43,620 nt of DNA from a virus (IMGVR_UViG_3300045988_007060:1-43620), one strand, 5' to 3'; positions 24,724 to 25,863 are shown, counted from the stretch's first letter. Translations and numbers: made by a program. The notes: generated from the sequence alone by a model not told the origin.

Positions 24724-25863
24724 ATGGCCCGGAAGAAAATAACCGACGAACAATTACAGGAAGAATTGAACGCCGGGGTGAAGAATATAGATATAGCCCG
24801 TAAATACGGCATCTCAGACCGAGTTATTCGTATCCGTAAAGCGAAGCTGGCAAAGAAAGGTGTGGGCCACGGGCGTGACGTTAGCCACCTTGTACCAGAC
24901 GGTTACAAGATTAAAGGGACGTCGTCACTGGTAGACGAGTTCGGCAACACTAAGTTGCAATGGGTTAAGACAGACACCGATGCCGAACGTCAGGTTGAGT
25001 TGATGAAAGCCGTAATTGAGGGCATGAAGTCAGAGATTACGCCGGTTGCGCCTGTTAAAGCCGTTCGGGCCAAACGTGACGATAAACTACTCAATCTTTA
25101 CACGGTATCTGACTTCCATCTCGGTATGCTGGCCTGGGCCGACGAGAGCGGCGACGACTGGGATATGAAAATCGCGGAAGACCTGTTCTCTCGATGGTTC
25201 GACGCGGCGTTTCAGAAAGCGCCGGACGCAGGAACAGGAGTTATTAACCTGCTGGGGGATTTCGCGCACTTCGATAGTCTGGATGCCGTTACACCTGAGT
25301 CACGTCATGTGTTAGACGCGGATACGCGCTATCAGAAACTGGTCCGCTACATGATTCGTATGGTACGCCGTGTTGTTGATATGGCTCTGGTTAAACATCA
25401 CACAGTCAAACTTTTAATCGTCCAAGGTAACCACGACCCTGTCGGCTCCGTATGGCTTGCCGAAATGTTCTGCACATTGTATGACAACGAACCTCGCGTA
25501 TTTGTGGACACCTCCCCCGACGTATACAAGATGGTTCAGCATGGAAAAACTACGCTGTTCATGCACCACGGACACCGTGCGAGATTCGATGCCATAGAGT
25601 CAGTAATGATTTCTAAATTCCGTAAGGCTTTCGGTGAAAGCACATACAGTTACGCCCATGTAGGCCATCTACATCATCAGAAACTAGTAGAGAGCCGTAA
25701 TATGGTAGTCGAACAGCACCGCACCCTGGCGGCGAAAGATGCTTACGCATCGCGAGGGGGTTGGATGTCTGGCCGTAGTGCTAACGTGATAACATATAGT
25801 GCAGAATATGGGGAGGTGGCACGCCTCACAATATCACCAGAAATGATAGGGGGTATAAATTGA
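24724..25863 (+). CDS. HTH domain fused to calcineurin-like metallophosphoesterase
   Basis: N-terminal HTH (NIDIARKYGISDRVIRIRKAK); metallophosphatase motifs DFH, GDFAHFD, GNHD, HHGH, GHLHH in canonical order. Confidence 0.7.
   Translation: MARKKITDEQLQEELNAGVKNIDIARKYGISDRVIRIRKAKLAKKGVGHGRDVSHLVPDGYKIKGTSSLVDEFGNTKLQWVKTDTDAERQVELMKAVIEGMKSEITPVAPVKAVRAKRDDKLLNLYTVSDFHLGMLAWADESGDDWDMKIAEDLFSRWFDAAFQKAPDAGTGVINLLGDFAHFDSLDAVTPESRHVLDADTRYQKLVRYMIRMVRRVVDMALVKHHTVKLLIVQGNHDPVGSVWLAEMFCTLYDNEPRVFVDTSPDVYKMVQHGKTTLFMHHGHRARFDAIESVMISKFRKAFGESTYSYAHVGHLHHQKLVESRNMVVEQHRTLAAKDAYASRGGWMSGRSANVITYSAEYGEVARLTISPEMIGGIN

Follow-up and report, generated by a model that had tools for sequence, protein, structure and literature searches.

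A helix-turn-helix metallophosphoesterase gene of a Kagunavirus-like coliphage: a typical member of a large, inconsistently annotated phage family

Which reaction is catalysed by a phage protein that joins a helix-turn-helix (HTH) to a metallophosphoesterase (MPE) domain, and on which substrate? This question is raised by a gene at positions 24724–25863 (+ strand) of the viral sequence IMGVR_UViG_3300045988_007060, whose entire 43,620 nucleotides are referred to as the window. The window represents the genome of a Kagunavirus-like coliphage (Guernseyvirinae) and shares ~88–90% nucleotide identity with phages XY2 and Bas70–76. The open reading frame (ORF) comprises 379 codons plus stop. Its annotated start is backed by a Shine-Dalgarno sequence (GAGGAAG, 24712–24718, + strand), read from the sequence 5 nt upstream of the ATG, and by close homologues of 376 aa that align from residue 1. 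The protein is a member of phrog_704 ('DNA repair exonuclease'), matching positions 2–389 of the 390-position profile with residues 4–375 (E 5.8e-162). Both Pfam models for the catalytic domain, Metallophos_2 (PF12850; 22.3 bits versus a cut-off of 27) and Metallophos (PF00149; 18.4 versus 21.5), score below their gathering thresholds, hence the protein represents a divergent clade missed by curated models. A search of NCBIfam gave no meaningful match. The HTH-MPE feature is genuine and stands far above chance.

A first-pass annotation of the window had listed all calcineurin-like phosphoesterase motifs in their proper order, and each of them was confirmed. The ordered series DxH / GD / GNH(D/E) / H / GHxH, by which MPEs are recognized, is present on the + strand as motif I (D130-F-H132, metal ligands, 25111–25119), motif II (G178-D179-F-A-H182-F-D184, 25255–25275), motif III (G235-N236-H237-D238, 25426–25437), motif IV (H281-H282-G-H284, 25564–25575) and motif V (G314-H315-L-H317-H318, 25663–25677). 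Conservation was assessed in two samples, namely 120 diverse representatives and 197 independently sampled homologues, the latter being unbiased for residues outside the motif used to fish them out. Motif I is invariant in 120/120 representatives, and in the second sample D130 is found in 197/197 and H132 in 196/197 sequences. In motif II, G178 and D179 do not vary, and H182 is retained by 117/120 representatives; N236, H237 and H282 are constant in both samples. In motif V, G314 and H317 are invariant, H315 being retained in 115/120 and 192/197 sequences. Since the ligands of the binuclear centre and the catalytic histidine (D130, H132, D179, N236, H237, H282, H315 and H317) are thus invariant or nearly so in both samples, sequence conservation identifies the protein as an active enzyme under strong purifying selection. 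A pseudo-enzyme was considered and is ruled out by the same invariant catalytic residues.

Further near-invariant residues are specific to the family, i.e. H182, D184, T190, D198, R202, R258 and D339. Three of these belong to a loop following motif II with the signature T190-P-x-S-x-H-x-L-D198-x-D-x-R202 (25291–25329, + strand; T190 118/120, D198 115/120, R202 109/120). The loop is mostly coil in the predicted structure and may shape the substrate site.

The AlphaFold2 (AF2) model, calculated from a 120-sequence alignment, has a mean predicted local distance difference test (pLDDT) score of 93.2 and a predicted template modelling (pTM) score of 0.82. At the N-terminus it contains a three-helix HTH DNA-binding domain (aa 8–44; 24745–24855, + strand) with helices at residues 8–16, 21–28 and 32–44 (pLDDT 93–95). 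The HTH noted in the first-pass annotation is thereby borne out, also by the Pfam matches of homologous proteins: their N-termini hit Sigma70_r4_2 (1.5e-9), GerE (2.4e-8), HTH_8 (2.6e-7), HTH_1 and others. These significant matches and the AF2 helices rule out that the HTH is a misread linker. The own Pfam match of the protein studied here is weak and sub-significant (GerE-type, aa 14–45), and in searches against the PDB the family profile aligns weakly with the HTHs of GerE and RhlR. The catalytic domain (aa 119–375; 25078–25848, + strand) is modelled as an alpha/beta sandwich with pLDDT 94–99, which corresponds to the MPE fold.

Between these domains a linker of ~100 aa had been assumed. This holds only for residues 45–60 (24856–24903, + strand), which lack secondary structure and have the lowest pLDDT of the model (65–70), and for a short second stretch at about residues 105–118; together, the linker-like stretches span pLDDT 65–89. 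Residues 61–104 (24904–25035, + strand) are folded and conserved. They form a beta-hairpin (aa 61–85, strands 61–70 and 76–85) and a helix (aa 87–104), and G74 and W80 of the hairpin are near-invariant in the 120 representatives. The hairpin-helix element was found in 196/197 homologues, including those without an HTH, e.g. a 317-aa protein of Campylobacter phage F358, and belongs to the catalytic module. The HTH is present in 175/197 homologues (89%) and missing from ~11% of the sample; the catalytic module is never lost.

Among enzymes of known structure, the highest structural comparison values were obtained for the proofreading exonuclease PolD DP1 (15.8), Staphylococcus aureus SbcD (15.2) and Thermotoga maritima Mre11 (14.8). 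LpxH (13.9), MJ0936 (13.5), further Mre11/SbcD entries (13.5–12.7), YfcE (12.9), GpdQ (12.6) and Rv0805 (12.0) followed, with a Pseudomonas putida MPE nuclease (9.5) and PP5, a PPP-type protein phosphatase (9.3), at the lower end. Foldseek gave an agreeing picture. Judged from the predicted model, the nearest structural neighbours of the protein are nucleases. The earlier proposal of a role either in DNA processing or in degradation of signalling nucleotides is partly supported.

The family profile was also compared with single sequences using hhalign under identical conditions. T4 gp47, the phage Mre11/SbcD protein, was aligned over 185 columns covering motifs I–V with a probability of 79% (E 1.6e-5), and lambda NinI reached 0.8%; the values for the single sequences of E. 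coli SbcD (2.7%) and E. coli CpdA (2.2%) are both uninformative. Searches of the PDB by sequence, with the single protein as well as with the family profile, yielded nothing significant, the best hits being the GerE HTH (E 0.038) and Mre11/SbcD (E 0.16–0.45). In the profile alignment the family sequence GDflH is positioned on GDLLH of T. maritima Mre11. A histidine in motif II of the form GDxxH is typical of Mre11; PPP phosphatases have GDxxDRG instead. Accordingly, motif II of the protein is of the Mre11 type, and the PPP pattern (GDxHG ... GDxxDRG ... GNHE, together with profile similarity) is not found.

Despite these resemblances the protein is not an Mre11/SbcD orthologue. Identity to Mre11, SbcD and T4 gp47 is ~12–17%, and the hhalign comparison with E. 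coli SbcD is not significant. In contrast to these proteins it carries the additional N-terminal HTH and hairpin module as well as the family-specific loop 190–202. Moreover, the C-terminal capping or Rad50-binding domain of Mre11/SbcD is missing, since only ~60 residues follow motif V and these form short strands that complete the core; neither SbcD_C nor Mre11_DNA_bind of Pfam was matched by the protein or the homologues scanned. A Rad50/SbcC/gp46 ATPase was found neither among 138 viral and 148 prophage flanking genes nor in the fully annotated relative Bas71 or among the scanned window proteins. The archaeal PolD subunit DP1, an MPE-domain 3'-5' proofreading exonuclease, is likewise only distantly similar (12% identity), and the alignment is confined to the phosphodiesterase core (209 residues). 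DP1 has an OB fold and a DP2 partner, whereas the phage protein has the HTH and hairpin at its N-terminus, and no DP2-like gene was detected among the scanned window proteins or in Bas71. In further contrast to the PolD system, the phage studied here possesses a family A polymerase with an exonuclease domain of its own, and T1-like carriers are without an annotated polymerase. A precedent for a stand-alone, Rad50-free DNA nuclease with MPE fold is the Mn-dependent single-stranded DNA endonuclease from P. putida (PDB entry 6NVO), an enzyme that is cited in the database name of one close homologue.

We tentatively propose, at somewhat less than an even chance, that the protein is a stand-alone binuclear-metal DNA phosphodiesterase, i.e. 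a nuclease, which is tethered by its HTH and works in phage DNA metabolism without a Rad50-type ATPase. The HTH would bind duplex DNA and thereby raise the local substrate concentration, with the flexible linker tethering the catalytic module to it. The MPE core (aa 119–375), together with the hairpin-helix element (aa 61–104) and the loop 190–202, would hydrolyse phosphodiester bonds. Two metal ions, probably Mn2+/Fe2+, would be held by D130, H132, D179, N236, H282, H315 and H317, and catalysis may be assisted by H237 and the Mre11-like H182. Such an enzyme would belong to the structural neighbourhood of Mre11, SbcD and PolD DP1 and would act without a Rad50/SbcC ATPase. Presumably it would process ends or structures for recombination-dependent replication, or degrade host DNA, and it would probably be expressed with the early or middle genes. 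The lead of the nuclease neighbours over other MPE classes in the structural comparison is modest, with an identity of just 12–18%.

A more far-reaching version of this idea is rather doubtful. The family may be a class of its own, made up of Mre11-like nucleases that are guided by the HTH and independent of Rad50. These enzymes would be core to T1-like, Jersey-/Kagunavirus-like, Dhillonvirus and many prophage lineages, and the HTH would select the sites at which they perform a directed DNA transaction. Degradation of the host chromosome and the initiation or processing of replication or recombination intermediates are candidates for such a transaction. If true, a function would be assigned to the conserved T1 gene ST16, which has long been without one. 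A stand-alone DNA nuclease would also represent a new Rad50-independent branch of Mre11-like enzymes and would clarify DNA processing and degradation in small lytic siphophages.

The gene itself would be unsurprising to specialists. Its outline was given correctly in the first-pass annotation, and full-text literature searches yielded no experimental characterisation of the HTH-MPE family. What these searches returned instead was work on defence MPEs of bacteria (Metis, PUA-Cal-HAD), on Mre11-Rad50 fusions of viruses and on phages without the gene. The architecture is not rare, however, and is catalogued as phrog_704. By tblastn the protein was detected in 2,043 of 50,697 phage records (~4% of deposited genomes), 1,959 of which cover at least 80% of it. 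These records span Guernseyvirinae, Dhillonvirus, Drexlerviridae and Webervirus as well as phages of Vibrio, Rhizobium, Campylobacter, Microcystis and others. When 1.84 billion representative proteins were scanned exhaustively with HMMER, 4,514 clusters at 50% identity reached E<=1e-3, 1,139 of them E<=1e-30. A search of BFVD returned uncharacterised relatives only. Kagunavirus homologues are 93–95% identical to the protein, and ST16 of phage T1 (377 aa) is 44% identical over its full length including the HTH. The phrog_704 proteins T1 ST16, Bas71_0022 and RP180_21 share the layout of HTH, hairpin and MPE domain, with all invariant residues as in the protein from the window, which does not differ from these relatives in anything substantive; its C-terminus is merely 3 aa longer (…EMIGGIN versus …EMLG).

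Copies of the gene in bacteria were collected with a degenerate DNA pattern for motif II, which yielded 120 viral and 120 bacterial contigs. The family hidden Markov model verified 110 and 107 of these, respectively, and essentially all matches are true homologues. Alpha-, Beta- and Gammaproteobacteria hold most of the bacterial copies, which have phage genes on their flanks (lysozyme, portal, TerL, NinG, deoxynucleoside monophosphate (dNMP) kinase). Hence, these copies are prophage-borne and the family is phage-specific; a bacterial housekeeping gene is ruled out on the same grounds.

Within this very large phage family, which is catalogued but annotated inconsistently, the gene is a typical member. 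The phrog_704 name 'DNA repair exonuclease' is a transferred annotation. In GenBank, family members are labelled as DNA repair exonuclease, phosphatase, phosphodiesterase, oxidoreductase, transcriptional regulator, DNA methylase, recombination endonuclease or hypothetical protein. These labels should be replaced by 'HTH domain-containing metallophosphoesterase, function unknown'. Among the uncharacterised enzyme families of tailed phages, the HTH-MPE proteins form one of the larger ones and are conserved in groups relevant as models or for therapy, i.e. T1, the BASEL Kagunaviruses, Jersey-like Salmonella phages and Klebsiella Weberviruses. The family is large, occurs in T1 and the BASEL phages and can be studied in these tractable E. 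coli phages, which makes it a reasonable target for functional work. Some T1-like phages hold only fragments of the gene (Jk06 JK_64P, 258 aa; Salmonella phage 36, 112 aa; phiJLA23, 103 aa), and separate PHROGs exist for the N- and C-terminal halves (phrog_20703 and phrog_20762). Because of these fragments and half-length PHROGs, split genes, pseudogenes or interruption by mobile elements are suggested for some lineages.

The genomic neighbourhood varies widely between lineages. In T1 and tiwna the MPE gene follows genes for a helicase, a VRR-NUC protein and Dam and precedes holin and endolysin, so that ST16 of T1 has the helicase/Dam block on one side and the lysis cassette on the other. In Dhillonvirus bob it is found between the lysis genes and TerS. 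The gene of the Pantoea podovirus Nifs112 is located among those for a 5'-3' exonuclease, an HNH protein, endonuclease VII, a phosphatase, a dNMP kinase and a ligase, and that of Campylobacter phage F358 follows a Holliday-junction resolvase and a ligase. For a census of flanking genes, 73 lineages were defined at 70% identity, and BLAST clustering resulted in 578 clusters. No conserved partner gene emerged: the largest flank cluster spans 10/73 lineages, and no Pfam family occurs in more than 2/138 viral or 6/148 prophage flanks adjacent to the MPE gene. Accordingly, the enzyme has no obligatory partner.

Among the alternatives to a DNA nuclease, hydrolysis of host immune signals by a nucleotide or second-messenger phosphodiesterase comes first. 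The protein would then act against cyclic mono-, di- or oligonucleotides or other nucleotide-derived signals and serve anti-defence. Class III phosphodiesterases such as Rv0805 and CpdA hydrolyse cyclic nucleoside monophosphates, and the structural matches to phosphodiesterases agree with such an activity, as does the position of the gene in a small genomic island (see below). A DNA-binding HTH conserved in 89% of the members, however, is hard to reconcile with a soluble hydrolase of small molecules. Furthermore, the nuclease-type MPEs rank higher in the structural comparison, PADLOC models gave no related signal (0 families at E<=1), and the hhalign comparison with the single CpdA sequence, uninformative as it is, lends no help. 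To our knowledge no MPE-fold anti-defence phosphodiesterase has been described in phages, and the literature searches surfaced none; a signalling-nucleotide hydrolase would therefore be the first MPE-fold counter-defence enzyme we are aware of. We regard this function as unlikely.

The protein might instead heal nucleic-acid ends, as a 2',3'-cyclic phosphodiesterase, as a 3'-phosphatase or by removal of blocked ends. Together with polynucleotide kinase (PNK)/phosphatase and ligase it would repair cuts that host nucleases make in the RNA or DNA of phage or host, comparable to the MPE domain of bacterial Pnkp. This idea derives from a minor recurrent theme among the neighbouring genes: immediately after the MPE gene come a PNKP-type HAD phosphatase and then a P-loop kinase. 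RP180, a Kagunavirus, has HAD_PNKP (Pfam 3.3e-19) and a P-loop kinase-like gene at this place, and the unrelated podovirus Nifs112 has HAD_PNKP (2.2e-13), dNMP kinase and DNA ligase. The DNA ligase gene of F358 lies immediately upstream of the MPE gene, and the window contains a 76-aa ORF related to the C-terminal part of the RP180 kinase-like protein. The pair as such is absent from the window, however; neither the window nor Bas71 has PNK genes, and at positions −1 and +1 the association is limited to 2/73 lineages. Bacterial Pnkp has a lambda-phosphatase-like MPE domain, whereas the family is unrelated to lambda phosphatase in the profile test, and HAD and kinase neighbours are equally compatible with nucleotide salvage after DNA degradation. 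End healing thus also appears improbable.

Even less probable is a protein that is primarily a transcription factor, i.e. an activator of late or lysis genes or an autoregulator, with the MPE domain as a sensor or a secondary activity. Apart from the genuine HTH, a weak match of aa 3–36 to phrog_836 'late transcriptional activator' (E 0.0058) points in this direction. So does the location of the gene directly before the lysis cassette or terminase genes in Drexlerviridae (T1, tiwna), Dhillonvirus and several metagenomic lineages, and it twice adjoins a homologue of antiterminator Q. For the protein studied here, however, the phrog_836 and GerE matches are sub-significant, and the HTH-less versions described above, which always retain the catalytic module, contradict a primarily regulatory protein. 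In hundreds of homologues the catalytic residues are all invariant or nearly so, which means that selection acts on catalysis.

A Ser/Thr/Tyr protein phosphatase acting on host or phage proteins, like lambda NinI (lambda-PP), is very improbable: the two share the MPE superfamily with its DxH, GD and GNHD motifs, a placement before late or lysis genes in several phages recalls that of ninI within the nin region of lambda, and homologues of NinG and Q sometimes lie nearby, but the family has no detectable profile similarity to NinI and a different motif II signature, and such phosphatases rank low in the structural comparison. The case of a NinI-like phosphatase with a spurious HTH, raised in the first-pass annotation, is excluded by the GDxxH motif II, the hhalign result and the genuine HTH.

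Within the window, the MPE gene is part of a small + strand island (24332–26560) that shares the direction of the replication genes and runs against the surrounding late genes. One flank is formed by the tail assembly chaperones and the tape measure gene (21084–24167, − strand), the other by the major tail gene (26588–27760, − strand). Scans for promoters, terminators and repeats around the island gave nothing above shuffled expectation and no operator-like repeats. The island layout is common to Bas71 and RP180. Its first gene (24332–24658, + strand) encodes a 108-aa protein of phrog_14165 (unknown function) with a signal-peptide-like N-terminus (MRKLVLALGFMSFAAFG…), which is conserved in Bas71 and has no match in Pfam. 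Its sequence suggests an accessory protein that is secreted or periplasmic.

Downstream of the MPE gene follows a free-standing HNH homing endonuclease gene (25860–26333, + strand; phrog_99 E 1e-48, Pfam HNH_3 E 2.5e-21). Compared to Bas71, it is a clean insertion of ~477 nt at the ATGA overlap between the MPE stop codon and the start of the 76-aa ORF. The three additional residues at the MPE C-terminus are a result of this insertion at the stop codon. HNH genes also adjoin the MPE gene in T1 (ST15), Vibrio phage 93E33-1 and Pantoea phage Nifs112, and a second free-standing HNH gene of the phrog_99 family is located at 5298–5810 (+ strand) of the window.

The island ends with the 76-aa ORF (26330–26560, + strand). 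Its PHROG matches are confined to the C-terminal ends of longer profiles, e.g. positions 150–220 of 235 in phrog_2452, and in RP180 its homologue is the C-terminal part of a 184-aa P-loop kinase-like protein. Within the RP180 locus (4128–5167) this protein, which is AAA_18-like, comes after the PNKP-type HAD phosphatase located directly downstream of the MPE gene. Hence, the island occurs in at least three variants, i.e. MPE-76aa, MPE-HNH-76aa and MPE-HAD-kinase-like.

Proteins of DNA metabolism encoded in the window comprise a helicase-primase, a PD-(D/E)XK DUF2800 exonuclease, a gp2.5-like annealing protein, the family A polymerase, a methyltransferase and a helicase. The polymerase ORF (7884–10979, + strand) encodes 1,031 aa, compared to 726 aa in Bas71. 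Pfam detected DNA_pol_A only at aa 370–446 and no intein/Hint domain at E<1e-3. Residues ~464–836 match the 'endonuclease' phrog_93 (E 2e-219) in frame between the polymerase halves, and this insert looks like an intein-like or in-frame homing-endonuclease insertion.
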